In this document: piece after piece, positions 2,913-24,924 of the stretch | Position numbering within the stretch: position 1 is the first letter of the stretch | Layout of the letters: each line of letters begins with the position of its first letter | Origin: a virus | Virus record (IMG/VR): IMGVR_UViG_646311906_000001 | Coordinates: 1-31,303 of that record | Direction: 5' to 3' (one strand) | DNA: 31,303 nt | Position numbers and translations under genes: made by a program | The notes under the pieces: model-generated | Seen by the model: the letters and a program-made list of their open reading frames with translations, nothing else | The model's database searches: none | Told to the model about the DNA's origin: nothing

Positions 2913-2924
2913 AGACTTTAAAAA
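2913..2924 (-). promoter_or_regulatory. Late promoter motif for the tail fibre
   Basis: TTTTTAAAGTCT-N18-ATG(2894). Confidence 0.8.
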
Positions 2925-3521
2925 TCAAAGCAAACCAGCATAGGTTCCCGCATCAGGATTTGAATTAGCGAGGTCATTATAGCCCTTAGTTGGATCTGAC
3001 GTCTCTTCTATGCTACGGTAGGTAAATGTTCCTTGTTGATACGCTTTAACTTGTACGCCAGCTGGCTTAACTGCCTTGATTAGTTCCTGAAACTCTTCGA
3101 GTGTCAATCCAGCATTGTTGAGATCCTGAAGCCATATCCAGACTTCGAATAATGCTACTTCCAAATCGTAGCGATCCCTAACTCTTACCCTACTCGTTTT
3201 CGTGTTTAGAGCGACTGCAATGATCTCCTTGATGTCGTTAATCGTTGCCATATTCGAAATCTTTGAGAATGCCAGCTTTATTCTCGCTCTGAAGTGGTCA
3301 TCAGTCTCATTTTGTTTCCTCCTTACGTTAAACAGTGAAGCAATATAGTCAAGGCTCTTTCCAGTTGCAAAGTCCACTAAGTGAGCGTTTTTTATGTCGT
3401 TGACGACTTGTTCGATGTTGCTGAACTCCGAATCGACGACCTTCAGCAATTTGTAATTGTTCGAATCTGGATCCTTGCGGAAGGCTGTTGAAAGCAATCT
3501 TACAAGCTTATCTACTGCCAT
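2925..3521 (-). CDS. Baseplate wedge protein (P2 gpI/DUF2612-like)
   Basis: Follows baseplate J. Motif ATGKSLDYIASLFNVRR...ETDDHFRARI. Confidence 0.75.
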   Translation of the reverse strand: MAVDKLVRLLSTAFRKDPDSNNYKLLKVVDSEFSNIEQVVNDIKNAHLVDFATGKSLDYIASLFNVRRKQNETDDHFRARIKLAFSKISNMATINDIKEIIAVALNTKTSRVRVRDRYDLEVALFEVWIWLQDLNNAGLTLEEFQELIKAVKPAGVQVKAYQQGTFTYRSIEETSDPTKGYNDLANSNPDAGTYAGLL

Positions 3522-3531
3522 GCTATCGCCC

Positions 3532-4707
3532 TCAGCTTATCGTAACTGTGATCTTGTCATCATCAGTTACAGCGATCTCGTTGTCGGCAATTGCAATGTT
3601 TGAGGTTCCAGCAGGTGGGGAAGTCTTGCCTATTTTCACGGTTGCATCGGCTACTCCCGGAACTCTCATGACTGCTGCAACGACTTTGTTGTAGATCACA
3701 TCATCTCCAAGCTCAAGCGTGTCGAAGTAGGCTTTAATTGCATCCTTGATCTCCTGCTCAGTCGCATCGGTCCCATCAGTTGTAACCTGCACGTCGATGT
3801 AAATTGGAACTTCAGTCGGTCTTTCGAAGTAAACGGTATGCGGGTTTCCGTCGATGTCGTAAGCAATGGCTGAAACGCTACCGTAAGGCTGGATTCCTGC
3901 AGGCTTGGCATCGAAAATCGCCTGAGCAACGGCTTGATCGTCGCCACCCCACACGAAAACACGAAAACTCTTAGGTGGTAGTCCACCTTCAGCAGTGTAG
4001 TCATTCATCGTATCGTTTTCTTCGATTTTAACAGATTTTACTCCTTCAACGCTTTTAACCCTCGCAACTATTGCATCAAGCGTAGCCCTACCGAGCGACT
4101 GAATCGTCGCCTTGATTCTATAACGGAATTCCTCGTCAGTTTCAGCATCTCTACCACCGCTCGTCGGTTCTGGGTTTGTGACTGACTCAATCCCCGAAAT
4201 TGGATCAATGATTTTGGTGATTGTGTTTGTAGCTACATTTCCGGCTGAGCCGGGTTCGACGGCTTCAATCGGAGCATCGACACTTGTGTCTCCAGCTTTG
4301 AGAACTACCGCTTCCGTTGTTTTGAAAATTACTGATTCATCCGACGTTGCAACTCTCGTTCCAGCTGGAATTATGATATCGGAAGTTGTAGGGGTTGATC
4401 TGCTGAATGTTACGGTTCCAGTTGCCTTCCTTGCTTCAATTCTCTTATAGCCGACAAGGGCCGCAAGGAAATCTAAACTTGAGCCAGTTGCGAAATCAAT
4501 GAACCCAGCATAGTAAGCATCCTCTGCCAACTGCCACAATTCATCTTCCCTCTTCGCCACGATTTCAAGGAATCTGAGCAGTCGAGAATTTTCCGATAAG
4601 TCGATGTCCTCTCCGAACTCTTGTTTTGCAAGTTGCTTTAATTCTTCCAGAATAACGCTGTAGGGCTTAGGTATGAATCCTGAAGAAGTAACGCCGTATT
4701 CGGTCAT
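3532..4707 (-). CDS. Baseplate J-like protein
   Basis: ATGSSLDFLA, A.EPGSAGNV, GGRDAETDEEFRYRI motifs typical of gpJ. Confidence 0.92.
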   Translation of the reverse strand: MTEYGVTSSGFIPKPYSVILEELKQLAKQEFGEDIDLSENSRLLRFLEIVAKREDELWQLAEDAYYAGFIDFATGSSLDFLAALVGYKRIEARKATGTVTFSRSTPTTSDIIIPAGTRVATSDESVIFKTTEAVVLKAGDTSVDAPIEAVEPGSAGNVATNTITKIIDPISGIESVTNPEPTSGGRDAETDEEFRYRIKATIQSLGRATLDAIVARVKSVEGVKSVKIEENDTMNDYTAEGGLPPKSFRVFVWGGDDQAVAQAIFDAKPAGIQPYGSVSAIAYDIDGNPHTVYFERPTEVPIYIDVQVTTDGTDATEQEIKDAIKAYFDTLELGDDVIYNKVVAAVMRVPGVADATVKIGKTSPPAGTSNIAIADNEIAVTDDDKITVTIS

Positions 4708-5057
4708 ACGACCACCTCAACATCGATTTTTCCAGAATCGAGCGTGAGGTAGAGCTTGATTTTGACTTTTCTATTAGCATCAGGCTCAGAAATCTCAATT
4801 TTGTCGATAGACTTAATTTTGTCGTAGCCAGCGAGGGCTTTGCGGATTTCGTGTTCAATTAGCATTCTGTTGTAACCGCTTCGCTTAATTTTGAGCCAGT
4901 CCACACCGAAATCTGGATGAAAAGCATCTGATCCCTTAACACATTTCAGGATGTGAACTATATCCTGCTTTACCTTATCGGCTGATGAAACTGAAGGGAT
5001 CCGTTTCAAGCTGTCAATAACGAGATCCCCAGTCGTGTCGAACTTGAAATCTTGCAT
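4704..5057 (-). CDS. Baseplate wedge/sheath initiator (gp25/gpW-like)
   Basis: FHPDFGVDW motif, size, position immediately upstream of gpJ. Confidence 0.8.
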   Translation of the reverse strand: MQDFKFDTTGDLVIDSLKRIPSVSSADKVKQDIVHILKCVKGSDAFHPDFGVDWLKIKRSGYNRMLIEHEIRKALAGYDKIKSIDKIEISEPDANRKVKIKLYLTLDSGKIDVEVVV

Positions 5058-5075
5058 GTAAGATTGGGGAAGAAT

Positions 5076-5087
5076 AGACTTTAAAAA
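5076..5087 (-). promoter_or_regulatory. Late promoter motif for the wedge operon
   Basis: TTTTTAAAGTCT-N18-ATG(5057). Confidence 0.8.
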
Positions 5088-5093
5088 AAGAAA

Positions 5094-5624
5094 TCAAGAG
5101 TGCTTGTGCCACTCGCCTGACTCAGCATCCACCCCTCTAATTTGCTTGAAGTCGAGATTCCCATCTACGTAAACATCACCCTTGATTGTTATCTTACCAT
5201 CTTGCTGAAATTTGATGTAATTGCCTGATTTATGCTCGATCAGGAGCTCATCTTTGCCTATTGTTGGAATCGAATCGACTAATGTGAATAATCCACCGAA
5301 AACGATCGCATTGTTTAGATTAAACTTGAGGAGCTCGTTTACATCAACAGCTTCTTTATTCTTGAGCTGTTCTACGAGTTCGTATTTTGAGAACAGAACC
5401 AAAACGATATCCCCCTCAGCCGGAGAAATTACTATCGTTCCAGCGGAGGACTTCAGACAAGCTATCGGCACATCGAACAGCTCTATCTCGTTGCCTTGAA
5501 TCTTATGCTTCAGCTTGACATTACACCTGAGTTTTTTCAAATCGACCTGCGTAATTATGCCCAATGCGACAGTGTTGATGTTATCGAGCTTTACATCGAT
5601 CAGCTTCTTGATCTGCTCGATCAT
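5094..5624 (-). CDS. Baseplate central spike (gpV/Gp138-like); start revised to ATG 5624
   Basis: N-terminal OB-type region (PAEGDIVLVLF) and C-terminal HxH apex motif (WHKHS). GGAGGTG RBS and ATGA overlap with the hub stop support start 5624. Confidence 0.85.
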   Translation of the reverse strand: MIEQIKKLIDVKLDNINTVALGIITQVDLKKLRCNVKLKHKIQGNEIELFDVPIACLKSSAGTIVISPAEGDIVLVLFSKYELVEQLKNKEAVDVNELLKFNLNNAIVFGGLFTLVDSIPTIGKDELLIEHKSGNYIKFQQDGKITIKGDVYVDGNLDFKQIRGVDAESGEWHKHS

Positions 5625-6490
5625 AATGGCGACACCTCCGCTTCCGTGTAATACTCCTCTCCTCTGCAAACATGCTTGAACTTTGTGACCTTGAAGTTGC
5701 CCGAAACTGTGATCGAGTTTATTTGAACGAGCGTTCCTTGCCTAATCCTCCAGTTAAAGATACAACGAACCTTGTAGGCTGATTTCTTCCCCTCTTCGCT
5801 GACATCTTGGACTTCCATCAATCCGCTTTCAGAGTCGAGAACTATTGCTTCAGCGTTGTAGTTTCTCTTGACAAAATAACCCATCCCATCCTGCCCGACG
5901 AAGACTGTGTAGAGATCGGATATCTCGCCGATTCTCGCTAAAGCCCCATCGAGTTGCAGTCCCTTGATCTTGTTACCGTTCACGAGTGGGAGAATCTGCT
6001 CGGTAAGGATTGCGTGAGGAGTCGAAGTTGTTGTTCCTCCGAAGACCATGTCTTTTTCAAGCGTAATACCCGGATCTTCTATCTTGCCAACTGGAATCCC
6101 TGCCTCAGCAAAGAGATCTTTAACAATATCTGCAATAGAGGTTCCCTTCGGATACTTCTTGCAGATCGGTTTAGCCATGAATAGTTGCTTGGTCATGTCC
6201 GAGGCTTGCAGAACAGTTTTGACGTCTGCTCCATCCCTCTCATCCCAAACCTTGTCAATCTTGCCGTAGAAAACGATCCCGTAATCGTCTTTGTAGCCAG
6301 CTTTAAGCTGGACTAGTTCATCTTTCTTGAAAGCCGATTTAGATTGTCCAAGATTGTAAACTGCTATTTCAGCGGTTCCAGCTTTACTTTCATCATCGTT
6401 CTCGATCACAAATTCTATATCTAAATCGTCAAGGGTGATGACTGTCGAGCCTACTTGTAATTCGACCATACGGTCCCAGAACTCAGGCAA
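5621..6490 (-). CDS. Baseplate hub protein (gp27/Mu gp44-like)
   Basis: LKAGY...IVFYGKI and LDSESGLM motifs, position before the spike. Confidence 0.8.
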   Translation of the reverse strand: MPEFWDRMVELQVGSTVITLDDLDIEFVIENDDESKAGTAEIAVYNLGQSKSAFKKDELVQLKAGYKDDYGIVFYGKIDKVWDERDGADVKTVLQASDMTKQLFMAKPICKKYPKGTSIADIVKDLFAEAGIPVGKIEDPGITLEKDMVFGGTTTSTPHAILTEQILPLVNGNKIKGLQLDGALARIGEISDLYTVFVGQDGMGYFVKRNYNAEAIVLDSESGLMEVQDVSEEGKKSAYKVRCIFNWRIRQGTLVQINSITVSGNFKVTKFKHVCRGEEYYTEAEVSPL

Positions 6491-6770
6491 ACACCCACAC
6501 CTCCGCAGTCTTTTCGTTTACATTCCAAGGCAGGATTACGAACAGAGTTTCATAAGTTTGCGGGTCTTTAATCTCAAACGGATTCTTTTCTACCAATTTG
6601 CCCTCAAAAACTATCTCATCATCTTCGAGCCTGCGAATCCTAAGAACTGCAAAGTTCCCTTGATAGTTCCAGCGATAGAATAGGCGATAAGCGGTATTGT
6701 TAATCTTAACGAGCTGTTTTTGTGGATAACCTAATTTTGGATCAAATGGAAGCACTTTGACCGATGGCAT
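6483..6770 (-). CDS. Small baseplate protein
   Basis: Conserved-looking YRLFYRWN motif, located between tube initiator and hub. Confidence 0.6.
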   Translation of the reverse strand: MPSVKVLPFDPKLGYPQKQLVKINNTAYRLFYRWNYQGNFAVLRIRRLEDDEIVFEGKLVEKNPFEIKDPQTYETLFVILPWNVNEKTAEVWVFA

Positions 6771-7316
6771 TTAACCACCTCCGAAACCGAATATCCCACC
6801 TAAAAACGAAACTACGCTATCTAACCAGCTCTGACTTCCTTGAGGTTGCTTTGGAGCTTGAGGGACTTGTTTAGTCTGTGGGGTTATGGCTGTATTTCCT
6901 CCCTTCGTTTCTTTATCATCGTTTTCATTCGGTGTGACCTGAAGCTGTTGAAGCGGTATCTCAGCAGTCTTAGCTTTAGCTTTCAGGATTTGCTTGACTC
7001 TCACGACAGCTCTAAACGTATTTTTCGAGCCTCCTTGGGTTATTGTAAGCTCCCTAATCACGACATCCTCGAAAACTCCAGCTTTGCAAACGAGCTCCGT
7101 CGGTTCTTTTGCCTCATAAAGCTGTTTTAAAGCCTCGATTTCATTCTCGAGCAGGGTCAAGGTTAGTTGGAACTCTGCAGGTTGGAAGAAGATGTGATCT
7201 GCCACAGGATAGCCGTCTTCTACCTTGTGTTCAGGAACAACAGCAGATTGAGTAAGATCGACAATCTCAACGGCTGTAAATTCTTGTCCACTAAGCAGAA
7301 TTTTTTCTTCAGCCAT
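6771..7316 (-). CDS. Tail tube initiator/Dit-like protein
   Basis: VPEHKVEDGYPVADH motif, directly after the tape measure. Confidence 0.75.
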   Translation of the reverse strand: MAEEKILLSGQEFTAVEIVDLTQSAVVPEHKVEDGYPVADHIFFQPAEFQLTLTLLENEIEALKQLYEAKEPTELVCKAGVFEDVVIRELTITQGGSKNTFRAVVRVKQILKAKAKTAEIPLQQLQVTPNENDDKETKGGNTAITPQTKQVPQAPKQPQGSQSWLDSVVSFLGGIFGFGGG

Positions 7317-7334
7317 GCTTTAAAAGAATAGAAA

Positions 7335-7345
7335 AGACTTTAAAA
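7335..7345 (-). promoter_or_regulatory. Late promoter motif for the hub/spike operon
   Basis: TTTTAAAGTCT-N18-ATG(7316), starting right after the tape-measure TAA. Confidence 0.8.
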
Positions 7346-9535
7346 TTAGTAAATGCCGATTGCATTGAATTTAGCGTTGAGTTTTCTTTCTACAAGCTCA
7401 GCAACTTTATCTGGGTCTTTGACACCCTCAATTTTGATCTCGATCTTTGGAACTTGGATTGTCTTGTGCTCATGCTTAATTTGGTAGTTCGCAGGTTGAT
7501 GAATTACAGTTTGAGTTGAGCTAACGAGCTGTGAAGGTGTTGGCGTTATCCTCGTCAATTCGTGGGTTATTTCAGGTTTAACGACATGGGTTATAGTCTT
7601 TGCAAGGTTAATCCCAACCCCGATAGGTGTTAAACCGAATGTAAATTCTACAACCTTACCAACTGGGCTTTTCGTGATAAATTCCCACGCCTGCTCGATT
7701 TTCGTGATAAACTCGTCGATCTTTGCGATGATCCAGCCGATTGTCCTGTCCCATAATGATTTAATTGCTGTCAAGGCTGAAGAAGTAGCTGATCTCAATT
7801 TGTCAATGTGTGTAACCAAATACACAATTCCTCCAACTGGACCAAGTAGTATATACTTCAGCGGTCCCATCCTATCGATGGCTTGTTGGATCCAATGTAT
7901 CGCCCCACCAATGGATTTAGCAAGCCAATCAAAGCCCTGTCTTAGCCAGTCTATAGCGTTTCCAACAGCTTCAGCTATAGGCTTAAGGAAGGGGTGCTTT
8001 TCCGATAGCCAATCCAAAGCCCGCTTTAGCCAACTGTGCTCCCAACCCTTCACCATGATGTCCTGCAAGATCAGAATCACACTAATTAACGCTCCAATTC
8101 CCGCTATCAGCGGTAACAACGGAACTGATAAACCCATTAAACCTACTTGAGCCGTAAATAGTGCCCTTGCAAAACCGAATATTGCACTTATGCTTGATTT
8201 GAAGCCTTGCACAGCTAAAAGCTTCAAAGCACCTCCCAGCGATAGTGTTTCAGCCGAAGTTTGAAGCTCTACAAGCCCCAATGTTGCTAAATGCCCGATA
8301 AGATCAATCAGTTTAGCCCTAAGTAAAATTGCTCCACCACCAACGAGCATCAACATCGTTGAGAATGCAATTCCAACACCTATTACATTCTGGATTGGCT
8401 CTGGCAATTTCGTGAATGCATCGGCTAAAGCTTCGACAAGTTTGACGAATGGTCTCACCAACGGAACCATTGCTTTACCGATATGTGCCCCAACTATCAT
8501 TAAGCTCGTTTTAAGCTTCTCAAGTTCAATGTGTAAAGTTTGTAAAGCTCTTGAAGCTTCTCTCGCTGCAGAGCCTTGAGAGTGTAGGGCTGTATTCGTA
8601 GCATCCATGACTATGTTCCACTTGTCAAACAAAGCGTATAGCATCGAAACCCTTCCACCTACAGTTATCTCATTGGCAATCGCATGTCGTAACTCGTCGT
8701 TTAGTGAATGCCATCTTTTGGCTAAATCTCTCATAATCTCTGATGCTGATCTGAATTCTCCGTTTGCTTTTTTAACTTGAACTCCAGCCTGCTCAAGTAA
8801 TTCTGCAACATTATCTTCGTAAAGCCGTGAAAACGTATAAGCTAAGAAGTTTCCAGCTTCTCCTGCCTGATAACCTGCTGAATGAAGGGCTGTTGCATAA
8901 CCTATTAGTTCCTCAAATGTAACACCGTATTGGTGAGCTACACCTGCAGCTTCTTGTAAGCTTTGAGCTAACTTAACGGAATCCGTTGCGAAGTTATTTG
9001 AAACCTCGTTTAAAGCATCGACAACCCTAATAGCATCTTCAGCTTTTAAATTAAAACCGTTGAGGATATACGTTAGATATTCCGTTGCCTGCCTTGCATC
9101 CAAGTTTTCAGCCGTAGCCCAAAGTAATGTCGCATTCGTCAGCTTTTCAAGTTCTTCCTCCGTGTTTTTACCCTGCCTCGCCCAGAGTTCCATTACTCCC
9201 AAAATATCTTCAACGGACCTACCGTAATACTTAGCCATAGCTTCAGCCGATCTTTGGATTCTCTCGAAATCTCTGTCAGATGGCATTACTTTCTTCAAAT
9301 TGACAAAAGCTTGCTCGAAATCAGCGAATTGTTTCACAGCTAAACCTATACCTGCTTGTCCAACTGCTCCGACTCCAGCCATGTATTTGCCCAATTCTTC
9401 AAGAGAGTCGTTCATTTGCTTGATTTTCTTAACAGCTTCGTCCGTAGCTTGATTTACTTGTGATAGTTTGCGATAGAAGTCTGAATCGTTGAGTTTGATT
9501 GCGATGTAAATTGCCCTAAGGGCTGTTCCAAGCAT
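7346..9535 (-). CDS. Tail tape measure protein (TP901/PhageMin_Tail-type core)
   Basis: 729 aa, Ala/Leu-rich helical, motifs FADFEQAF, DALNEVSNNFAT, AGEAGN. Position after the chaperone. Confidence 0.92.
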   Translation of the reverse strand: MLGTALRAIYIAIKLNDSDFYRKLSQVNQATDEAVKKIKQMNDSLEELGKYMAGVGAVGQAGIGLAVKQFADFEQAFVNLKKVMPSDRDFERIQRSAEAMAKYYGRSVEDILGVMELWARQGKNTEEELEKLTNATLLWATAENLDARQATEYLTYILNGFNLKAEDAIRVVDALNEVSNNFATDSVKLAQSLQEAAGVAHQYGVTFEELIGYATALHSAGYQAGEAGNFLAYTFSRLYEDNVAELLEQAGVQVKKANGEFRSASEIMRDLAKRWHSLNDELRHAIANEITVGGRVSMLYALFDKWNIVMDATNTALHSQGSAAREASRALQTLHIELEKLKTSLMIVGAHIGKAMVPLVRPFVKLVEALADAFTKLPEPIQNVIGVGIAFSTMLMLVGGGAILLRAKLIDLIGHLATLGLVELQTSAETLSLGGALKLLAVQGFKSSISAIFGFARALFTAQVGLMGLSVPLLPLIAGIGALISVILILQDIMVKGWEHSWLKRALDWLSEKHPFLKPIAEAVGNAIDWLRQGFDWLAKSIGGAIHWIQQAIDRMGPLKYILLGPVGGIVYLVTHIDKLRSATSSALTAIKSLWDRTIGWIIAKIDEFITKIEQAWEFITKSPVGKVVEFTFGLTPIGVGINLAKTITHVVKPEITHELTRITPTPSQLVSSTQTVIHQPANYQIKHEHKTIQVPKIEIKIEGVKDPDKVAELVERKLNAKFNAIGIY

Positions 9536-9553
9536 AGCAAACTATTTCAAGAC

Positions 9554-9564
9554 AGACTTTAAAA
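9554..9564 (-). promoter_or_regulatory. Late promoter motif for the tape measure
   Basis: TTTTAAAGTCT-N18-ATG(9535). Confidence 0.8.
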
Positions 9565-9571: not shown

Positions 9572-10012
9572 ATGAAGTTGTTAGGCAAATTCTTGATAGG
9601 GCTTGTCTTGATTTTTGTGTTGTTAATTTTCGCAGGTGCCGTATTTCAGATCCAACAAGAGAATGAGGTGAAAAATGCGAAAACTGAGCCCTACACCGTC
9701 GTTAATTTTTGGTCGGCTCATCAGCCAACAGCAAAAAGATTTTCTGAAAACATACTAACGAAGACAACGGACCACGATCAGATATTGCTAATTGCCAAAA
9801 AAGAAATTCTACGACTAAAAGACGAATACGATGCTGATATCGTTTGGATAAACATAGGCCCTGAGGTATGGGAAGATAACCCCAAGATCCTAAAAAAAGA
9901 GGCAGCTAAAATTATCTGGTTCAAGTTTGATGCTGAACCGAAGCCGTCAGTTAATGGATACAACTATGTTGGTGCTTTTGCTGGAGGAGATTTATACGTT
10001 TTATGGAGTTAG
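9572..10012 (+). CDS. Membrane-anchored accessory (moron-like) protein
   Basis: N-terminal hydrophobic anchor (FLIGLVLIFVLLIFAGAVF) then a soluble domain. Opposite strand inside the tail cluster. Confidence 0.75.
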   Translation: MKLLGKFLIGLVLIFVLLIFAGAVFQIQQENEVKNAKTEPYTVVNFWSAHQPTAKRFSENILTKTTDHDQILLIAKKEILRLKDEYDADIVWINIGPEVWEDNPKILKKEAAKIIWFKFDAEPKPSVNGYNYVGAFAGGDLYVLWS

Positions 10013-10525
10013 CGGAAAGTAAACAAATATTTTTTATCTTGCGATGCCTGACTAATTTTTTGGTTCTTCAAAGCTTTTGCTTGTTCTTCAGCCAAGATTT
10101 TGAAGTATATCGTCCATTTCAACAGCTTCTCGTGATCCCATTCAAGGATCTCATCTACATCCTTGTGAAGCTGATGAGCGATGTAAAATATGTGAAAATC
10201 ATTCCTTACATCTTTTTCAAGCCGTTCAACCCATTGCGAGTCGAAATAGTTTATTTAAGCCAGATATCTCCATTGCTTTCGCGATTAATTCAGCTTGAAT
10301 TGAAGCATCCATCTCATCCCAAAGCTCGTCAAAGTTTTCCGGCGGTTTTGGATCGACAACAATCGCTTTAATCAACTCTTTCTGGATTGCTTGCACATCG
10401 TTGGGATGTTTGTTCAGAATCTCTCTCAATTCCCTCGCTTTCAAGCTCTTTCTGATCTTGAAAACTTCTCCTGCAATCACAACAGTTTCAACTTCCTCTT
10501 TTGCTTTGAAACGTTCCCAAGTCAT
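10009..10525 (-). CDS. Frameshifted long tail assembly chaperone (gpGT-like, about 171 aa) via a +1 shift at TTT-CGA (10246-10241)
   Basis: The +1 frame is open for 77 codons after the site (DSQWVER...FYIAHQLHKDVDEILEW...FTFR*). The -1 frame closes quickly. Confidence 0.7.
10226..10525 (-). CDS. Tail assembly chaperone (gpG-like)
   Basis: 99 aa, acidic/helical, between tube and tape measure, has its own late promoter. Confidence 0.8.
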   Translation of the reverse strand: MTWERFKAKEEVETVVIAGEVFKIRKSLKARELREILNKHPNDVQAIQKELIKAIVVDPKPPENFDELWDEMDASIQAELIAKAMEISGLNKLFRLAMG

Positions 10526-10543
10526 AAAAAGCCCCTCACAGGC

Positions 10544-10555
10544 AGACTTTAAAAA
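10544..10555 (-). promoter_or_regulatory. Late promoter motif for the chaperone
   Basis: TTTTTAAAGTCT-N18-ATG(10525). Confidence 0.8.
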
Positions 10556-10749: not shown

Positions 10750-11052
10750 TTATTCGAGTGATTTTTCAGATTCTGTGATCTTCTTGAGTCTTTTTACATG
10801 GGAATTCATCCATTCTGCTATGGACACAAACTGATTGGGGCTCATTCGCACGTCTACTAGCAATTTTCTGACCACTTTACCAACTCTCATTTTTCCAGGG
10901 ACTTTCTCATCCATTTCTGGTTCTAATAGATCCACATAGAAAATCATTCGCCCTTCTATCGGATCTACTCCTCCAAACACCCCATTGACGTATATCACTT
11001 TATACTCTGGATCCTTGACAATTTCAATTGGTGGAATCTTACTTTCCTTCAT
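10750..11052 (-). CDS. DUF3467-like protein (start probably ATG 11052)
   Basis: YVNG...VRMSPNQF...WMNSHV pattern resembles DUF3467. GGTGG RBS, overlaps the wHTH gene end. Confidence 0.55.
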   Translation of the reverse strand: MKESKIPPIEIVKDPEYKVIYVNGVFGGVDPIEGRMIFYVDLLEPEMDEKVPGKMRVGKVVRKLLVDVRMSPNQFVSIAEWMNSHVKRLKKITESEKSLE

Positions 11053-11500
11053 AAATACCACCTACTGCAGAATTCATAACCAATTTTTCAATAGTCTGCT
11101 CAGTTTTCGATGAATCGTCGCATTCATAGCTATTCCGCAACGGTGAAATCAGCAATGTCTTTAGAATTTCCTCTTTTGGCATGATTGAGTAATACAGCAC
11201 TTCAAGGAAGTCCTTACCAAACTCTGTTGCTGCGTAGAACGCTCTACCTCTGTAGCCCACATCACATAGATTCTTAGCGAACTTTTTTACTAGACCTGCC
11301 GAGGTCAAGCTCTTAAGTATTCTGTCGAGTTCTTGTGGGTGCGCGCCGAAGATATCCTTAATCTTATTGAAATTCATTTCACCTTCTTTAACTAAAGCTA
11401 TGAATACTGCCCACCTCTTGTCATCAGATAAAGCTTTGACAGCTCCCCTTAGTTCTTCGGGCACCTCCGATGCATACCTCTCAACTACTTCCTCTCTCAT
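11039..11500 (-). CDS. ArsR-like winged-helix transcriptional regulator
   Basis: KALSDDKRWAVFIAL...LDRILKSLTSAGLV...YAATEFG. Confidence 0.8.
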   Translation of the reverse strand: MREEVVERYASEVPEELRGAVKALSDDKRWAVFIALVKEGEMNFNKIKDIFGAHPQELDRILKSLTSAGLVKKFAKNLCDVGYRGRAFYAATEFGKDFLEVLYYSIMPKEEILKTLLISPLRNSYECDDSSKTEQTIEKLVMNSAVGGIYEGK

Positions 11501-12673: not shown

Positions 12674-13750
12674 TCAGAGTGTTATAATCAGGTCGAGCGT
12701 TATCTTGCTGATCGCTCCGCTCAGGTAAGCGGTTACCTTGACATTCTTGAGAATTCTTGCCGCTTTGTCAGAATCGCTTATGTCATCGTAGTTAGGCATC
12801 TGTACCTCGTATCCTCTAACGAGATTACCATTCGCATCCACGTAATCCTCTCTCAAGGCTCTTTGAGCCTGAGCAACTCTCAAAACCTTCTCAATAGTTG
12901 CTTTAATCATGCTAAGGCCCTGTGGCGTGTACGGGATCTTGGATCCCATGTTTGCAAGTTTGAGCTTCAGATTGATCAGAGCATTCCTTATCTCCGTCAC
13001 GAGATAAGCTTTCGTTCTTGGAACATCAATCCAACTCCCATCCAGAGATTTGGCAGTAGAGATCACAGCTTTTCCGATTTCAATGATCGTGGCGATGTTA
13101 TTCTGTTCGAGCTGATCAACTTCACTCGCCTTGTAGCCAGCCGCATTGACCCCCTGCACATTGTACCACTCGCAGGGGATCCAAGGCTGGAGCTTACTTA
13201 TGACTCCTGCAATTGCACCGCTGAGTTCTCCAGGAGTTAGATTAGTATCGTCGTGAGCTACTGCGAAGACGTACTCGTTTGCGGTCAGGGCCAAGAAGTT
13301 TGAGGTTACTGTAGCCGCATCTCCTATCGAGGCCAAAACGAGAACCTTATGGTAGGTTCCAGCGTGATTTACGAGTTTTGAAGCGTTAGCATCGCTTGCA
13401 TCGATAGTCGCAACCATTATGTCGTAATCTACTTTTTTGTCCTCCAAATCGGCAAGAACTGTATCGTAGTCCGCAACAGCGTTCCCGGTTCCGTCATCTT
13501 TCATCGCATTAACTGCTTTAACCCTCTGCACTCCTTGAGCGAAGACTTTGGCAGTTGCTTTGGATATCGGGCTGTCGGGGCCGAAGTCAGCCTCAACTTC
13601 GCTTTGTGAGTAATAGGTCTTGACTTGATTGAATAGATCGAGCTTGTTCGGATCCTCACCGATTACAATGACTTCTCCGTAGGTTTCGCTGGGAGCTGCA
13701 AATGTTGCATCCTGTAGGTTGATAGTTATTGCACTCTCAGCCGTTGGCAT
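12674..13750 (-). CDS. Tail sheath protein (DUF3383-like)
   Basis: VEADFGPDSP, WIDVPR, KIPYTPQG, YLSGAI motifs of contractile sheaths. Confidence 0.9.
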   Translation of the reverse strand: MPTAESAITINLQDATFAAPSETYGEVIVIGEDPNKLDLFNQVKTYYSQSEVEADFGPDSPISKATAKVFAQGVQRVKAVNAMKDDGTGNAVADYDTVLADLEDKKVDYDIMVATIDASDANASKLVNHAGTYHKVLVLASIGDAATVTSNFLALTANEYVFAVAHDDTNLTPGELSGAIAGVISKLQPWIPCEWYNVQGVNAAGYKASEVDQLEQNNIATIIEIGKAVISTAKSLDGSWIDVPRTKAYLVTEIRNALINLKLKLANMGSKIPYTPQGLSMIKATIEKVLRVAQAQRALREDYVDANGNLVRGYEVQMPNYDDISDSDKAARILKNVKVTAYLSGAISKITLDLIITL

Positions 13751-13781
13751 TCTTAATCACCTCTCCTAATTTTTCTGCCAT
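13737..13781 (-). CDS. 14-codon upstream ORF (MAEKLGEVIKNANG) overlapping the sheath start
   Basis: ATG sits at exactly the leaderless-start position of the late promoter. Out of frame with the sheath and contains the sheath RBS. Confidence 0.4.
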   Translation of the reverse strand: MAEKLGEVIKNANG

Positions 13782-13799
13782 GAAATGGAGAATTAGACG

Positions 13800-13811
13800 A
13801 GACTTTAAAAA
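13800..13811 (-). promoter_or_regulatory. Late promoter motif for sheath/tube
   Basis: TTTTTAAAGTCT-N18-ATG(13781). Confidence 0.8.
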
Positions 13812-15397: not shown

Positions 15398-15591
15398 GTT
15401 TTATCCCCTCCTGCAGCTCTCGATGCAAAGTAAAAGCCCAGCACGAGCATCACGATGTCTTTGTCGATCGTACCAGTCTTGATGAAATAGCCAAAAACGA
15501 TAGTTAATGCTATGATAGCTCTAATGCTCCCTCGTGGCATCCATAACGGCGCATTTCTACGTAATAGCTCGAATCTTCCTCTTTCACTCAT
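15394..15591 (-). CDS. Small two-TM holin-like protein (65 aa; start revised to ATG 15591)
   Basis: WMPRGSIRAIIAL then two short TM segments. The late promoter places the start at 15591. Confidence 0.7.
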   Translation of the reverse strand: MSERGRFELLRRNAPLWMPRGSIRAIIALTIVFGYFIKTGTIDKDIVMLVLGFYFASRAAGGDKT

Positions 15592-15609
15592 AATCGCATA
15601 CGCCAAAAC

Positions 15610-15620
15610 GGACTTTAAAA
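15610..15620 (-). promoter_or_regulatory. Late promoter motif for the membrane-protein/neck operon
   Basis: TTTTAAAGTCC-N18-ATG(15591). Confidence 0.75.
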
Positions 15621-18287: not shown

Positions 18288-18297
18288 TCACACCACC

Positions 18298-18663
18298 TCA
18301 CTCTAATCCTACAATCTTCCTCAACTCCTTGTACTTCCTCACGTCGACCTTGCCAAACGGAGAATCGATGAATTCCGGCTCGTCGAGAACAGTCTTAACC
18401 TTCTCAGCGACCTGCTTCGTGGAAAGAGCCTTATCGGCTAAGTCTGCGTACAACAGCTTCAATTCAATCACGTTCGCTTTCTTAAGCTCGGTTTCGTCGA
18501 TTTCTGTCTTCGTGATCTTAGATACGTTCTTGATCTTCTCGATGAGCTCTGCTTTCTCTTTTTCCTCGTATTCTGCGAGCTTAGCCTTAAGCTGCTCGTT
18601 TTCTTCTCTGAGTCTCTGGTTCTCTGCTTCGAGCTCTTTCACTTTAATCTCTAACTCCTTCAT
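18298..18663 (-). CDS. Nested in-frame scaffold protein starting at M320 (121 aa)
   Basis: Late-promoter-like TTTAAAAAGTCT-N19-ATG inside the protease gene, exactly at the start of the coiled coil. Confidence 0.55.
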   Translation of the reverse strand: MKELEIKVKELEAENQRLREENEQLKAKLAEYEEKEKAELIEKIKNVSKITKTEIDETELKKANVIELKLLYADLADKALSTKQVAEKVKTVLDEPEFIDSPFGKVDVRKYKELRKIVGLE

Positions 18664-19620
18664 GCCTTCATCAGCGGAAATCAGACTTTTTAAATCAAGA
18701 TGCCCGTCGAGAATCTTGTAGAATATGAACTCCGGAATCGCTCCACCGCATTTTATTCTCAGTTCCTCGAGCATGTGGAACTCTGGGGGTTCCCTGCCGA
18801 ATTCTTTGTAGTGAGCGGCGAGATGGTTGTAAACGGGCCTTCTATCCGAACTTGGAATATCGACACCGCCACGAGCTCCGAATAAAGCTGCCATTGCTGC
18901 TACAACTCCTCTCCAGACTACAGCATGAGTCCTTGGATCATGATGCGGTAACTTGAGATCTGTGAATCTCTTAGGAGGATTCTCAGGAGCCCAAGCGAAG
19001 TGTCCGGCTATCGATCTCTTCTCCTCAGTACTCAGCTCGTCCCAAGACTTGTCGGTAAAATCGCTCAAAGTTGGCTTTTTCCATGAGCTTTTGTCGTCTT
19101 TGCCGTATTTCCAAGGATGGCTCGGGACTACACCCTTGGTTAGCTCAACGCCTCCATCTTTATTCAGCATTTTCTCATAAACATCTTCTACAATAGCTTC
19201 AGGGTTAGCAGGAACCCCGACCAGAGATATTTCTAAGATTTTTAGACGAGTTATCTTATTACCCTGTCTTTCAAGAATCTTGAAGCCAATGCTGAAGGCA
19301 TCGAGAAATCTCTCCTTGAGGGATTTGTAAACCGTCTCAAATAGCGGATGGGCTTTGTTCAGCATTAGTTTGACCCACAATTTGCCGTTGCGAACTTCGG
19401 CTTCGACAATCTTGCCGATCGGGATGTCGTCGTATTTGTGATTGAGAAATACTTTGTTGTACGGCTCCTGTGTGAGTTCCTTAGCTGCCTGCTCGAGAGC
19501 TTCTTCGGTGATTATGTCGCCGTCGAGATCTTTGACTGCCGCTGAAGCATAGCCTTCTACGTAGACATTTTTGTCGTCGCTGAGCTCAGATACGCTCAAA
19601 TCTTTAACTACCAGTTCCAT
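18298..19620 (-). CDS. Prohead protease (HK97 S78-type) plus inserted domain plus coiled-coil scaffold
   Basis: VEGYASA..KDLDGD, LNH, FSIGF, EISLVGVPANP (aa 1-150); helical coiled-coil C-terminus. Confidence 0.9.
   Translation of the reverse strand: MELVVKDLSVSELSDDKNVYVEGYASAAVKDLDGDIITEEALEQAAKELTQEPYNKVFLNHKYDDIPIGKIVEAEVRNGKLWVKLMLNKAHPLFETVYKSLKERFLDAFSIGFKILERQGNKITRLKILEISLVGVPANPEAIVEDVYEKMLNKDGGVELTKGVVPSHPWKYGKDDKSSWKKPTLSDFTDKSWDELSTEEKRSIAGHFAWAPENPPKRFTDLKLPHHDPRTHAVVWRGVVAAMAALFGARGGVDIPSSDRRPVYNHLAAHYKEFGREPPEFHMLEELRIKCGGAIPEFIFYKILDGHLDLKSLISADEGMKELEIKVKELEAENQRLREENEQLKAKLAEYEEKEKAELIEKIKNVSKITKTEIDETELKKANVIELKLLYADLADKALSTKQVAEKVKTVLDEPEFIDSPFGKVDVRKYKELRKIVGLE
18683..18694 (-). 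promoter_or_regulatory. Internal late promoter variant
   Basis: TTTAAAAAGTCT-N19-ATG(18663). Confidence 0.55.
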
Positions 19621-19638
19621 GAAAAATTAGCAAAAAAG

Positions 19639-19649
19639 AGACTTTAAAA
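19639..19649 (-). promoter_or_regulatory. Late promoter motif for the protease
   Basis: TTTTAAAGTCT-N18-ATG(19620). Confidence 0.8.
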
Positions 19650-19651
19650 GA

Positions 19652-19918
19652 TCAGAGAATAACGAGAGCTACACCCTTGCGCTTCATGTCATTGAGAGGT
19701 AAGATCTCAAGCTCCTCGCCCTTGTCGTGCTTAAGCTCCTTAACTATGTCATCCGGAACATCAGCATACAACTTGCCATCTTCAGAATAGAACCTGACAG
19801 GGACATCGGATTTATCAACGATGATAAGCATATCTGGAGCCTCGACTACCTTAACGAAATAAACACCCTCCTTCAGTCCTACCGCTTCAAATTCGTCTTT
19901 TCGGACTTTTAGCTTCAT
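19652..19918 (-). CDS. AbrB/MazE-like small protein, putative immunity/antitoxin
   Basis: GKLYADVPDDIVKELKHDKGEELEI swapped-hairpin pattern. ATGA overlap with the MuF stop. Confidence 0.55.
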   Translation of the reverse strand: MKLKVRKDEFEAVGLKEGVYFVKVVEAPDMLIIVDKSDVPVRFYSEDGKLYADVPDDIVKELKHDKGEELEILPLNDMKRKGVALVIL

Positions 19919-21111: not shown

Positions 21112-21116
21112 TTAGA

Positions 21117-22268
21117 TCACTCTTCACTTTCAGGGAGTGGGGGAAATCCAACTAATTCTCTTGCCTCGTTTGTATCGATAATTCCAGCTTGATATAATTG
21201 GACAGCTATCTCACTCCATAAGAGTTCCTCGTCCATCACTTCCTCGAATTCGATTTCAACGTCGAGATTTAACAGCGGGAACAGTTTAGCCTCGAGTTCT
21301 TCTTTGACTGTGGCCCTAAGTGATTGCAAGAATAAGCTGAACATCTTCAGCTGGTTAAACGACGTTGCACGGTTGGAACCCTCCGGCTCACCATAAAACA
21401 CCTTAGGAACCTTAAGCGCTTTATCGATCTGTCTCTGCAGGTACTGGATCATTTCCACGAGACCCTTCAAATCGAGCTTGGATTCCAGAACTTCAAACTC
21501 AGTAGATTCATCCGTCACGATTTGATTGACGACGACGATCTGATCCTCAACGTTTGTAGCGTTGTAATTTGTTTGCACCCTGTTTTGCAGAACCTTCTCA
21601 ACATCCGGGATCCTTGCAGGATTCTTTACCTTCGCATGCAACAACGGATGGCTCATTCTGTACGCCATCACCGCTGCCAAGATCTCCAGCTTCTGCTTGA
21701 GTTTGAGCAGGTTGTAAACTTGGTGGATTAAGGAGTAACCGTAGGGGCTGTTGCCGATTCTACCATAAGCGAAGTGCAAAACACGGTCCGGTGGAAGATC
21801 CCTCTGCTCGTTGCCAGTTGAATAAACGTAAGCCAATATGTCGCCGAACTCGTTGACCTTCACACGAACCCTCTTAGGGTTGAGATATTGCATTTCGATT
21901 CCTATCTCGCTGTCCGCAAGGTACTCATAGGCGTTGCCGTAGATCAGCATCGTTCTGACGTCGTTTATTAGCCGGGTCCGGAGCTTAACTTCTTTGGCAA
22001 ACTCTTCAGCCCTTCTAACATCCTGCTCTGGTCCGCTGAAGTTGAATTCCGTAACGGCAAAATGAGCGATGAGGTCAATAGCCGTGCTGACATCCACCGA
22101 GGTAAAGTAGGTCTCCTCATAGGCCTGATAGTTCTGCACGACTCCCATCGTAAATGCCAGATTCTGACTGAGTTCTGCGAATGGGAATATTTGGACTTTC
22201 TCCGCTCTGTAGTCGGCTGATTTGGTTTTGAAGGATGAGACGATTTTCTGCTTGAGCTTCCAGAGCAT
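21117..22268 (-). CDS. Portal protein
   Basis: MLIYGNAY, LNPKRV, VLHF.YG..G.SPYGYS, ALKVPKVFYG motifs; between TerL and MuF. Confidence 0.92.
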   Translation of the reverse strand: MLWKLKQKIVSSFKTKSADYRAEKVQIFPFAELSQNLAFTMGVVQNYQAYEETYFTSVDVSTAIDLIAHFAVTEFNFSGPEQDVRRAEEFAKEVKLRTRLINDVRTMLIYGNAYEYLADSEIGIEMQYLNPKRVRVKVNEFGDILAYVYSTGNEQRDLPPDRVLHFAYGRIGNSPYGYSLIHQVYNLLKLKQKLEILAAVMAYRMSHPLLHAKVKNPARIPDVEKVLQNRVQTNYNATNVEDQIVVVNQIVTDESTEFEVLESKLDLKGLVEMIQYLQRQIDKALKVPKVFYGEPEGSNRATSFNQLKMFSLFLQSLRATVKEELEAKLFPLLNLDVEIEFEEVMDEELLWSEIAVQLYQAGIIDTNEARELVGFPPLPESEE

Positions 22269-22285
22269 AAATCATGCAAGCAGTT

Positions 22286-22298
22286 AGACTTTATTAAA
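22286..22298. promoter_or_regulatory. Late promoter variant for the portal; its TATA also fits the divergent + gene
   Basis: Minus: TTTAATAAAGTCT-N17-ATG(22268). Plus: TTTATTAAA-N19-ATG(22318). Confidence 0.65.
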
Positions 22299-22317
22299 GA
22301 ACAAGTTACGTCAGTAC

Positions 22318-22668
22318 ATGCAGTTAATACAGAAGTTGGCAATTGTCATGGTAGTGGTAGTACTGGCATCTTTTACCTTCTATGTTCTTCCCCCTCTACT
22401 GTATGTAATCTTCCAAAGTATTATCACTTATGGAGTTATATCTTATTTCTGGAAAGAACTCAAGAGAATTGCTAAAGAATACCTTCGAGCAATTATTGCA
22501 GGAGCTTCAGGAGGATTTGTTGTTTTTTTGGCAAGCAAGTTGTCAACTCCAAATGTCAATCTCAACGAGACAATATGCTTCTTTGGTCTAGGTATGAGCG
22601 CTGTAGTGTTTTTTATGCTACTATATCTAATTGTTGAAGGAGTTGAAGATGAGAATGGCCAAGATTGA
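22318..22668 (+). CDS. Multi-pass membrane accessory protein
   Basis: About 4 hydrophobic segments, opposite strand between TerL and portal. Confidence 0.7.
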   Translation: MQLIQKLAIVMVVVVLASFTFYVLPPLLYVIFQSIITYGVISYFWKELKRIAKEYLRAIIAGASGGFVVFLASKLSTPNVNLNETICFFGLGMSAVVFFMLLYLIVEGVEDENGQD

Positions 22669-22727
22669 CAGATGTACATCGCTTGTTCGCCCAAGATGCT
22701 AGAGCTGGAACTACCACATAAGTATGG

Positions 22728-23021
22728 TTAGATAGGTCTGTAAATCTTAACTCCTAAGAGCTCCCCTGTTACCTCATATTCCGTCTCCTCTAAGTACTTT
22801 CTAATTATCTCATAATCAATTGGAAACTCACCGAACTTTTCTATAATCCATTTTTTGTGCTTTTCATCGTGTGGACTTTTGAAAGATATGTGCTTAGCTA
22901 AATCTGCCGCTCTTGGTTTTCTAAACGGCTGTTTTTCGCTACTGTACTTTATAAGATGTCCGCAAACAGGGCATTGGAGCATACTTTTATGGCCGATATC
23001 TGCATATCTCACACGCTTCAT
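22728..23021 (-). CDS. Zinc-finger protein (C2H2-like; start probably ATG 23021)
   Basis: CPVCG...LAKH...DEKH. TTTAAATTATC lies 19 nt upstream of ATG 23021. Confidence 0.65.
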   Translation of the reverse strand: MKRVRYADIGHKSMLQCPVCGHLIKYSSEKQPFRKPRAADLAKHISFKSPHDEKHKKWIIEKFGEFPIDYEIIRKYLEETEYEVTGELLGVKIYRPI

Positions 23022-23093
23022 TAGATCTGAACTTATTACAGATAATTTAAAGTTTTTGGCATTACATAAAAAATTATATATCACAAAAAGATT

Positions 23094-24455
23094 CTATATC
23101 CTCGCTACACCTAGGCTGATGTATCCCGTACCTGAATGCTGCTCAGCCGCCCAGACCGCCAAAGCTAAAGCAATAACATAGTCATCGTGGAACCCTTGCC
23201 TCGCTTCCATCTTGATGCCAGTTCTCGTTAGCTGGTACTCGAAGAACTGTAGCTCCTTGACGAGCTCCTCAATGTATGGATATCTGATCTCACCATTTTC
23301 TAATGCAGCCTGCAACCTCTGAATTAATTGGACCTTAGACTTAGGTGTAAAGACGTATCCCTCAGCCCCAACATCCTGCAGGTCCTCGAGCACAGGATCC
23401 CCAACACCGGTCGAGTCGATCAGTACCTTAGCATAGTTGAACCTGCGGTAGAGCTCCTTGAGCCTCATGATGACCTCAGCGTAGGGCCTGCGGTTGAACC
23501 GTTCAAAGTGGACCAATTTGTAGGGCTTCTCCGTCACATCGAGCACCACGATAACGGTATAATCCTGATACTTCGCCAGATCGCAGCCGATAACGTACTG
23601 CTTACTTACGTTTTCAGCACTATCAATCAACTCGATGCTGTTATCCACATTTTTCTGAATGTCAGCCCATCTGAACACAGCATTCTGATCCTCCACGAAT
23701 TCGGCCAAGTATTCAGTTCGGAATATGATCGAGTTCTCGCCGTACTCCCGCTTCTTCTTCTCGATGAATTCATGAGAGATGTGAGGGTTGACTGTTGAGG
23801 GGAAGCGATAGCTCGAATAGTCGGGAAAATCTGGACTCTGGCCCTTCAGGTAAGTATCGTAGAAGTGATTCTTACCGAATGGGGTTCCGATCTTGATCCA
23901 AGAACCGTTATAGTCTGCGAGCATGGGCTCGATGATGTTTGAGATTACATCATCCGGAATGAATGCAGCCTCATCAAGGATGATCCGGTGAGCTTTATGA
24001 CCTCTCAAGAATTCGGGCTTGGATGCCGAACGGGCATGAATAACGCTGTCATTTTTGAAGATGATGTGATGGAACGGAGTCTTGTAGATCCTTCTGATCA
24101 TGCATCCCAAAATCGACTTAGACAGAAACTGAACGATTTGGCCGAACATTATGTTAGATTGATCGTAAGATGGAGCTATTACAAACTGAATCGAGCCCGG
24201 ATTAGTTAAAGCGTAATAAATGGCTGAAACTGCCATGCATTCTGTCTTACCGAACCTCCTACCTGCTACTACTGTGATGAATTGATGCCGGTCCCGCAGG
24301 ATCTGAGCCTGTGCAGGGTGTGCCCCCCAGTCAAGGAACACTTTGGCGAAGGTTACAGGATCCGAGAGAACCTTCTTCTTAAGCTCCTTGTCAGTCTTCA
24401 ACTTCTTCAATATCGTTTTGTCCAAAGATTTCTTTGAGGAGGTCTTCGGTTTCAT
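23094..24455 (-). CDS. terL: Terminase large subunit
   Basis: Walker A AGRRFGKT, Walker B IILDEAA, IGTPFG, nuclease GCDLA and HDDYVIALALA. GGGTGA RBS before ATG 24455. Confidence 0.97.
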   Translation of the reverse strand: MKPKTSSKKSLDKTILKKLKTDKELKKKVLSDPVTFAKVFLDWGAHPAQAQILRDRHQFITVVAGRRFGKTECMAVSAIYYALTNPGSIQFVIAPSYDQSNIMFGQIVQFLSKSILGCMIRRIYKTPFHHIIFKNDSVIHARSASKPEFLRGHKAHRIILDEAAFIPDDVISNIIEPMLADYNGSWIKIGTPFGKNHFYDTYLKGQSPDFPDYSSYRFPSTVNPHISHEFIEKKKREYGENSIIFRTEYLAEFVEDQNAVFRWADIQKNVDNSIELIDSAENVSKQYVIGCDLAKYQDYTVIVVLDVTEKPYKLVHFERFNRRPYAEVIMRLKELYRRFNYAKVLIDSTGVGDPVLEDLQDVGAEGYVFTPKSKVQLIQRLQAALENGEIRYPYIEELVKELQFFEYQLTRTGIKMEARQGFHDDYVIALALAVWAAEQHSGTGYISLGVARI

Positions 24456-24897
24456 CGTAATCACCCATTATCTGATGCTTAAGCTTGATAGCGCCTAAAG
24501 GAGATCGAGTTGTAACTTCCCAAGCACGTGGCTTTTGAGTTGGATCGATAGTTCTCAGAAAACGTAGAGAACGCTCTATGGTCTCGTCGAGGGCCTTAAT
24601 GGAATCGACGACTTTCTCAGCCCCTTCCTCAAGTTGCTCGTAGTACTTCTCAATTCCCTTCTTGACGAAGTTGAAGTGGTTCTTATGCCGGCTGATGTTT
24701 TGCTTCGATAGACCGGGAATTTTGTCCTTGAACTTTGCGATGATTTCGGAGTAAGGTCTTCCTTCGATGAGCATCTGATTGATCTCGTGGACATAAGGGG
24801 AACGGCAGATCTTGCATCTCGGATTCGGATGGAACTCCACATCGAATTCATCACGGTTGTCACGCTCAGCATTACCCCCATCACGCTCGTCACGCAT
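24391..24897 (-). CDS. terS: Terminase small subunit (probable)
   Basis: CKIC...HTH...SRHKNH N-terminus, helical C-terminus, directly upstream of and overlapping TerL. Confidence 0.7.
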   Translation of the reverse strand: MRDERDGGNAERDNRDEFDVEFHPNPRCKICRSPYVHEINQMLIEGRPYSEIIAKFKDKIPGLSKQNISRHKNHFNFVKKGIEKYYEQLEEGAEKVVDSIKALDETIERSLRFLRTIDPTQKPRAWEVTTRSPLGAIKLKHQIMGDYDETEDLLKEIFGQNDIEEVED

Positions 24898-24915
24898 GGA
24901 ACGTTATAATGTATG

Positions 24916-24924
24916 GGACTTTAA
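24916..24924 (-). promoter_or_regulatory. Late promoter motif for the terminase operon
   Basis: TTAAAGTCC-N18-ATG(24897). Confidence 0.75.

Follow-up and report, generated by a model that had tools for sequence, protein, structure and literature searches.

A GTCT-bearing core promoter class that probably serves late, leaderless transcription of virion genes in Archaeoglobales tailed viruses

The viral record IMGVR_UViG_646311906_000001 was analysed at its full length of 31,303 nucleotides (nt), referred to below as the window. It corresponds to positions 1262882–1294184 of contig C1 in an Archaeoglobaceae genome (G000; 1,563,423 bp, 42% G+C), which consists of a chromosome and a second contig of 2,801 bp. 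The window holds the greater part of a myovirus-like tailed provirus of about 33.7 kb, integrated at the tRNA-Leu gene of its Archaeoglobus host. The subject of this study is a short sequence, TTTAAAGTCY, which recurs in front of the virion genes of this provirus and which probably acts as their late promoter.

The bounds of the provirus (C1:1262636–1296314) are marked by a 52-bp perfect direct repeat representing the 3′ part of tRNA-Leu(TAA). Its two copies, at C1:1262636–1262687 and C1:1296263–1296314, lie just outside the window on either side, and therefore the last ~2.1 kb of the provirus are missing from the window. The integrase gene is located at the left end of the provirus. Searches against Pfam and PHROGs revealed a complete myovirus-type morphogenesis module on the minus strand, with head genes (TerL, portal, MuF-like protein, prohead protease-scaffold and major capsid protein) as well as tail genes (sheath, tape measure, Dit-like protein, hub, gp25-like, Baseplate J, gp48-like and a DUF2341 fibre). 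For the early genes the same two databases were uninformative, and Rfam and tRNA scans of the window returned no matches.

In the window, TTTAAAGTCY has eight exact matches, all on the minus strand, and each is followed by an ATG after exactly 18 nt. Dinucleotide-preserving shuffles yielded a mean of 0.27 matches and a maximum of 2. Three variants of the motif bring the total to 11 sites, each 17–19 nt before an ATG and all confined to the morphogenesis half; the early region contains none. A first-pass annotation, made from the letters of the window, had reported nine sites with an 18-nt spacer and variants at 22268 (17 nt) and 18663 (19 nt), and every one of these coordinates was correct. 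Its description of a minus-strand set that spares the early genes and splits the structural region into about 11 units was likewise borne out, as was its remark on ribosome-binding sites: the motif-led ATGs have no Shine-Dalgarno (SD) sequence, whereas the internal genes have GAGGTG-type sites. The promoters fit into intergenic gaps of 29–36 bp, with the stop codon of the previous gene 1–8 nt from the TATA box. The sites are listed below with the genes that follow them (lengths in amino acids, aa) and their occurrence in related viruses.

24895–24925, minus strand: predicted late promoter 1, CTTAAAGTCC-N18-ATG(24897); TerS-like (24391–24897), TerL (23094–24464; Pfam) and 118-aa genes; the TerS-like gene is motif-led in 4 relatives.
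22266–22295, minus strand: predicted late promoter 2, variant AATAAAGTCT-N17-ATG(22268); portal (Pfam), MuF-like and 88-aa genes; portal motif-led in 6 relatives.
19618–19648, minus strand: predicted late promoter 3, TTTAAAGTCT-N18-ATG(19620), exact match 19639–19648; prohead protease-scaffold, then SD-led genes including the major capsid protein; site kept in 6/6 relatives.
18661–18692, minus strand: predicted internal late promoter, variant TAAAAAGTCT-N19-ATG(18663); inside the protease-scaffold open reading frame (ORF), before about residue 320; identical variant at the same position in 6/6 relatives.
15589–15619, minus strand: predicted late promoter 4, TTTAAAGTCC-N18-ATG(15591), exact match 15610–15619; 65-aa gene and neck/connector genes; kept in 5 relatives.
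13748–13809, minus strand: predicted late promoter 5, TTTAAAGTCT-N18-ATG(13781), exact match 13800–13809; 14-codon leaderless mini-ORF, then an SD sequence and the sheath ATG at 13750; sheath motif-led in 5 relatives.
10523–10553, minus strand: predicted late promoter 6, TTTAAAGTCT-N18-ATG(10525), exact match 10544–10553; 99-aa putative tail chaperone; orthologous site in the related locus L009.
9533–9563, minus strand: predicted late promoter 7, TTTAAAGTCT-N18-ATG(9535), exact match 9554–9563; tape-measure gene, motif-led at 7 sites of relatives.
7314–7344, minus strand: predicted late promoter 8, TTTAAAGTCT-N18-ATG(7316), exact match 7335–7344; Dit-like, 95-aa, hub and 191-aa genes; kept in 4 relatives.
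5055–5085, minus strand: predicted late promoter 9, TTTAAAGTCT-N18-ATG(5057), exact match 5076–5085; gp25-like, Baseplate J and gp48-like genes; kept in 3 relatives.
2892–2922, minus strand: predicted late promoter 10, TTTAAAGTCT-N18-ATG(2894), exact match 2913–2922; tail fibre (DUF2341) and 113-aa genes; orthologous site in the related locus L013.

Across the whole host genome we found 22 matches to TTTAAAGTCY, of which 8 fall in the window, that is, in 2% of the DNA. Only one of the host matches is followed by an ATG after 18 nt. When the 1.56-Mb genome was scanned with a weight matrix built from related viruses only, sites of the provirus took 9 of the top 10 places. The strict pattern TTTTAAAGTCT-N18-ATG occurs 3–11 times per genome in five other host genomes, compared with 0–1 for the reversed control, and nearly all of these matches fall in provirus contigs or regions. 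Thus, in six genomes the strict pattern is almost exclusive to proviruses.

Homologues of the sheath protein were present in 10 of 94 Archaeoglobales genomes, the host genome included, as well as in four viral contigs; the related loci come from Archaeoglobaceae, Archaeoglobales, Geoglobus and Archaeoglobus. In 8–10 related Archaeoglobales (pro)viruses, about 50 sites keep the motif at matching module boundaries, at protein identities of 36–87% (55–87% for the sheath). In the Geoglobus ahangari relative, 20 kb of early region are passed without a site until the TerS-like gene is reached. Both of the sequence tests that the first-pass annotation had proposed, a motif scan of the window and host genome for enrichment and a search of related archaeal viruses, came out in favour of the motif.

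It is worth stressing that the same element emerges when the motif is not imposed. An ATG-anchored profile of starts without an SD sequence recovered TTTAAA at −28 to −23 and G-T-C at −22 to −20, and GTC at −24 to −18 was seen in 54 of 117 such starts versus 9 of 92 SD-led starts. The motif is a real, highly non-random and conserved feature.

A second, more distant myovirus (L036, contig G033:C69; sheath 37% identical) shares its host genome with a motif-carrying virus, and the motif is absent from it. In its place we observed the signature TGACTT-N3-TTTTTAT(A), about 22 nt before the ATG (sites 4728, 7390, 8178, 10888 and 12886), with 5 exact copies in 13.6 kb and 7 in the 2.6-Mb host genome. 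The use of a different signature by a myovirus sharing the same host genome indicates that the signal belongs to the virus lineage and not to the host. The reverse complement of the L036 signature contains AAGTCA, which resembles the AAGTCT found here but stands on the opposite side of the TATA box.

To describe the architecture of the element, we aligned 52 viral sites from the window and six related loci and compared them with 149 TATA promoters of the host; distances from TATA box to first ATG were surveyed in 1,838 long host ORFs. The viral consensus reads yT-TTTAAA-GTCT-rtt, then N18, then ATG. An 8-bp TATA box, TTTTTAAA, occupies −30 to −23 from the A of the ATG, and GTCT follows immediately 3′ of it. 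Measured to the ATG and not to a mapped start, TTTAAA lies at −28 to −23 in 37 of the 52 sites and within ±2 nt of this position in the remainder. The spacer is 18 nt long at 37 sites, 19 at 9, 17 at 5 and 20 at 2. The spacer and the flanks vary freely, and the motif alone is conserved; it is asymmetric, with neither a dyad nor a direct repeat.

The surroundings of the box differ from those of host promoters on both sides. Upstream, the viral stretch from −9 to −1 is T-rich and G-poor, and a T stands at −1 of the TATA box in all 52 sites although the search did not impose it. An A is found at −5 to −3 in 6–27% of viral sites (6% at −5) versus 57–65% of host TATA promoters, where it forms part of the transcription factor B recognition element (BRE). 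Scored with a host-BRE matrix, the viral sites reached −1.86, compared with +1.00 for host promoters and −0.60 for all genomic TTTAAA sequences; the purine- and A-rich BRE of archaeal core promoters is thus lacking. Downstream, a host TATA box is followed by T or A, with G in only 9% of cases, and GTCY occurs in 3 of the 149 promoters, which agrees with the earlier view that the motif is virus-specific and GTCY not a standard element.

Other parts of the promoter are ordinary. The base before the ATG in viral sites is C in 54% and T in 23%, which makes a normal pyrimidine-purine initiator. In the host survey, TTTAAA and TTTATA peak at −29/−28 from the first ATG; the leaderless geometry is therefore nothing unusual, and the host routinely makes leaderless mRNAs. 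Mapped start sites in Thermococcus kodakarensis have the TATA box ~23 bp and the BRE ~33 bp upstream (PMC4247193). The viral boxes, measured to the ATG, agree with the A/T-rich TATA box ~23–27 bp before the start of an archaeal core promoter, as the first-pass annotation had supposed when it placed the box at −28 to −23 and the start at the ATG.

An early promoter of the same provirus offers a direct contrast.

31280–31303, continuing ~35 nt past the window, strand not assigned: left half of the early/lysogeny switch (a contrast, not a late site); TTTAAA box, no GTC.

Here a single palindromic TTTAAA is common to two divergent leaderless genes, both ribbon-helix-helix (RHH)-like by eye. The promoters are host-like, with A-rich BREs on both sides and no GTC. 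Two exact ATAACGTTAT palindromes at the switch each overlap an ATG, and a third copy with one mismatch is adjacent (window 31280–31303 plus the next ~50 nt, equal to L016:100–170). Only 5 exact copies of ATAACGTTAT exist genome-wide, none of them in late promoters.

Two further possibilities were tried and rejected. An antisense promoter arising from the palindromic TATA box is contradicted by a low BRE score in the reverse orientation (−0.79) and by the lack of genes in that direction. The 8-mer ATAACGTT just before the TerS ATG was considered as a repressor site, and its frequency fits chance.

We consider it likely that the motif is a family-specific late core promoter for the virion genes of Archaeoglobales tailed viruses and gives rise to leaderless mRNAs. 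The position of the TATA box at −30 to −23 implies that the host RNA polymerase, working with the single host TBP and TFB, should begin transcription on the A of that ATG, a position that follows C or T. On this view all 11 units would be transcribed as leaderless mRNAs, with GAGGTG ribosome sites serving the downstream genes. The class differs from both host promoters and viral early promoters in that the A-rich BRE is missing and an invariant GTCT is added, probably where TFB/TFIIB touches the DNA downstream of the TATA box. GTCT, instead of a BRE, might give the palindromic TATA boxes their direction and class identity. Promoters of this kind would presumably be weak unaided, and a trans-acting factor, either viral or a modified host contact, may switch them on late. 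Oligo-T runs act in archaeal termination. The T4–T7 run that ends in the TATA box may thus double as an oligo-T terminator of the preceding unit.

Two of the sites carry additional predictions. The promoter within the protease-scaffold ORF predicts a nested scaffold. The ATG at 13781 is not the sheath start: it opens a 14-codon mini-ORF, and the sheath itself begins at 13750 with an SD sequence of its own. Such mini-ORFs, 9–14 codons long, follow the late promoter, precede the SD-led start of the sheath gene and overlap its ATG; they were present in five viruses examined (window, 13750–13781; L009, 9969; L011, 9969; L012, 116; L013, 9973). In the case of L015 and L037 there is no mini-ORF and the sheath is directly leaderless. 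The retention of the mini-ORF ahead of an SD-led gene suggests that a 5′-terminal AUG, or an A at +1, is kept even where it is not the gene start.

Several points weigh against this interpretation. The start sites and the late timing are deduced from geometry and gene function, and the sites in relatives are orthologous, not independent, so that P values are overstated. In L037 (relative G065:C15), two accessory genes near the att end, one for a 154-aa membrane protein and the other a 54-aa ORF (789–1280 and 1409–1600), are likewise led by late-type promoters, and "structural genes only" is therefore too narrow a description. Among five early regions compared, we found no regulator that is both conserved and confined to motif-carrying viruses. 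Additionally, TBP, TFB and RNA polymerase suffice for in vitro transcription from the GTC-bearing promoters of SIRV1 and SIRV2, rod-shaped viruses of Sulfolobus, and Sta1, a host protein, stimulates it (PMC1635249); GTC thus need not require a viral factor.

The late-promoter reading has a sharper version, in which the virus encodes a dedicated late activator that recognises GTCT together with its flanks beside TBP and recruits TFB and RNA polymerase. We regard it as possible, although doubtful. Promoters without a BRE should need help, the motif class is restricted to late genes, and two myovirus lineages with two invariant signatures in one host genome are what would be expected if each virus brought its own reader. 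The early operon is also rich in small DNA-binding proteins. Yet the early regions are highly mosaic, in contrast to a nearly invariant motif, and all that the five have in common is a 185-aa nuclease-like protein (PD-(D/E)xK-like), the TerS-like gene and a 213-aa family.

The candidates for such a reader were followed up one at a time. With Pfam models for TFIIB and TBP we detected one gene of each in the host and none in the provirus, in agreement with the first-pass annotation. A sub-threshold Zn_ribbon_TFIIB match (E 1.3e-3) in a 53-aa ORF (26117–26278) was discarded as a TFB; tblastn found no copy of this ORF in relatives. The same annotation had put forward C2H2 and winged helix-turn-helix (wHTH) proteins, and neither suggestion fared well. 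The C2H2 finger protein (26271–26591) is missing from the records of five relatives and, besides the window, occurs only in L037. The TrmB-like wHTH protein (11039–11500) is encoded in an AT-rich cassette without counterpart in relatives.

The only conserved wHTH family is the 213-aa one (29571–30212), whose AlphaFold model (mean pLDDT 68) has a wHTH-like C-terminus with weak Foldseek matches to wHTH folds (best E 0.057). It is confined to Archaeoglobales, and its presence in a motif-less fusello-like provirus of A. veneficus counts against it as a motif-specific regulator. The 185-aa early protein was rejected on account of its D...E-x-K nuclease-like motif, seen by eye, and its place in the replication module. 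With no candidate both conserved and motif-specific, no regulator can be named. The viral activator acting through GTCY that the first-pass annotation proposed is unsupported as stated and stands as an inference.

Alternatively, GTCT could be an intrinsic core element read by the host TFB and TBP, an archaeal counterpart of the eukaryotic downstream BRE (BREd), so that the promoter is compact, directional and BRE-independent; something else, such as the first late unit or the copy number of the genome, would then determine the timing. We consider this somewhat unlikely. GTCT does sit at the BREd position, and GTCTRTT fits the consensus RTDKKKK at 5–6 of 7 positions (PMC5580651), but the C at the third position violates it. 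The GTC at the TATA-box 3′ edge in unrelated Sulfolobus rudiviruses, the narrow intergenic gaps and the failure to find a conserved viral regulator all suit an intrinsic element. However, GTCY is rare in host promoters, the other myovirus in the same host has a different signature, and eleven constitutive virion-gene promoters would be hard to square with a silent provirus.

That the motif is an operator we find very unlikely. Repression in archaea is commonly exerted at the TATA box or downstream of it, and the switch is flanked by two RHH-like proteins, of which the one of 111 aa was present in four of the five early regions. The asymmetry of the motif does not suit this role, the switch has a different operator-like palindrome, ATAACGTTAT, which the late promoters lack, and the missing BRE would be left unexplained. 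That the motif works in RNA, as a processing or translation element of a polycistronic late transcript, or is a plain repeat, as opposed to a promoter, is extremely improbable: a ruler-type RNase could in principle make use of the fixed spacing to the AUG, but both the A/T hexamer and its distance from the ATG coincide with the promoter peak of the host itself, only the motif is conserved while the spacer is free to vary, and there is no Rfam family match.

Other features of the provirus were noted alongside the promoters. A large non-coding gap (24944–25217) separates the early operon from the first late promoter and contains several (T)TGTATAC(AA) palindromes, one of them ~25 nt upstream of the TerS promoter; the gap may serve as an origin, as a packaging site or as a regulator array. 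In four relatives, though not in the window, the sheath promoter is immediately preceded by a fragment resembling a tRNA 3′ end, GGTTCGAATCC-GGGC-GGGGC (L009, ~9900–9940; L013, ~9905–9945; L015, ~9935–9972; L037, ~19240–19275); this fragment may be a recombination relic at a module boundary.

By eye, a 118-aa protein (22728–23084), which closes the first late unit after TerL, is a second C2H2-like zinc-finger protein, and a 302-aa early protein (26603–27511) has a SWIM-type CxCx(n)CxH pattern. At one replication locus (window 28149–29413; L037 5703–6966; L019 3655–5177), the conserved 185-aa gene is followed by a viral PCNA homologue in relatives and by an RNase H-fold exonuclease in the window, which looks like a module swap in the replication genes. 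The ~2.1 kb beyond the window encode a 111-aa RHH-like protein, a 381-aa SDH/ClpP-like protease, a 117-aa protein and a 59-aa RHH-like protein, the gene for the last of which extends into attR.

Very little is known about the timing of archaeal virus genes, and the GTC element of SIRV1/2 has been without a known reader since 2004. The provirus offers a cleaner second case, with 11 near-identical promoters of fixed geometry and no BRE. It also has a built-in control, namely the host-like early promoters in the same element, and its host has only one TBP and one TFB. This opens to in vitro test the question of whether a sequence just downstream of the TATA box can replace the BRE in setting direction and class. 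Additionally, the motif provides a simple annotation rule for late operons, nested scaffold genes and leaderless starts in this virus family.

Compared with the canonical archaeal core promoter, the late class has the TATA hexamer at the usual −28/−29 from the ATG, the same pyrimidine-purine initiator and, necessarily, the same host TBP, TFB and RNA polymerase. It differs in lacking the A-rich BRE, which is even selected against, and in adding the invariant GTCT.

Temperate phages have late-gene regulons of their own, such as those of P2 Ogr, Mu C and lambda Q. As in these, one repeated signal stands before each morphogenesis operon of a temperate tailed virus. Unlike them, the provirus relies on a different transcription machinery, its promoters would produce leaderless mRNAs, and no activator gene was identified in it.

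To our knowledge, no archaeal BREd has been defined. The eukaryotic element, as summarised in PMC5580651 after Deng and Roberts (2005), has the consensus RTDKKKK immediately 3′ of an 8-nt TATA box. GTCT stands in the same place behind the 8-nt box TTTTTAAA, and GTCT(A/G)TT agrees with most of the consensus, whereas its invariant C breaks position 3. The likeness is one of position, not of membership.

The closest parallel is provided by SIRV1 and SIRV2, whose GTC element was reportedly described by Kessler et al. in 2004. A literature search on the motif string itself returned only unrelated matches and no paper tying it to archaeal viruses. According to a review (PMC5569661), GTC is found downstream of the TATA box in most SIRV1/SIRV2 promoters, and a role as a virus-specific cis element has been proposed for it. 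In the SIRV2 sequence, we found ~20 upstream regions that read (T/A)ATAAAAAT-GTC-ATAA. Both systems thus have many viral promoters in which GTC borders the TATA box on its 3′ side (here 11 sites in the window and ~50 in relatives), and in neither is it a host feature.

The two systems otherwise differ. SIRV are rod-shaped and the provirus is head-tailed, from an unrelated realm and a different host phylum, with no detectable shared genes. SIRV promoters are said to keep the BRE and are stimulated by Sta1, whose site, ATNT-N8-WNAT, is different from the GTC motif (PMC1635249), whereas the late promoters of the provirus have no BRE. In SIRV, GTC follows an A-run and one more T, its distance to the ATG is variable, and it marks most genes with little temporal order. 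The provirus keeps a fixed distance between the element and the ATG and has GTC in the late class only.

The virus-specificity that the first-pass annotation claimed stands, but the annotation missed that the leaderless geometry is the norm in the host and that a GTC element had already been described in SIRV1/SIRV2 (PMC5569661). It is conceivable, though unlikely, that archaea in general use a GTC at the 3′ border of the TATA box to build BRE-independent, directional promoters (as a downstream BRE, or as a dock for a small factor riding on TBP/TFB), and that unrelated viruses of two archaeal phyla, rudiviruses and Archaeoglobales myoviruses, adopted it independently to set their own genes apart from those of the host. 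The late class described here adds to the already described but unexplained GTC-type viral promoters, and it differs from the SIRV form in the lack of a BRE, the fixed spacing to the ATG and the late-only use.

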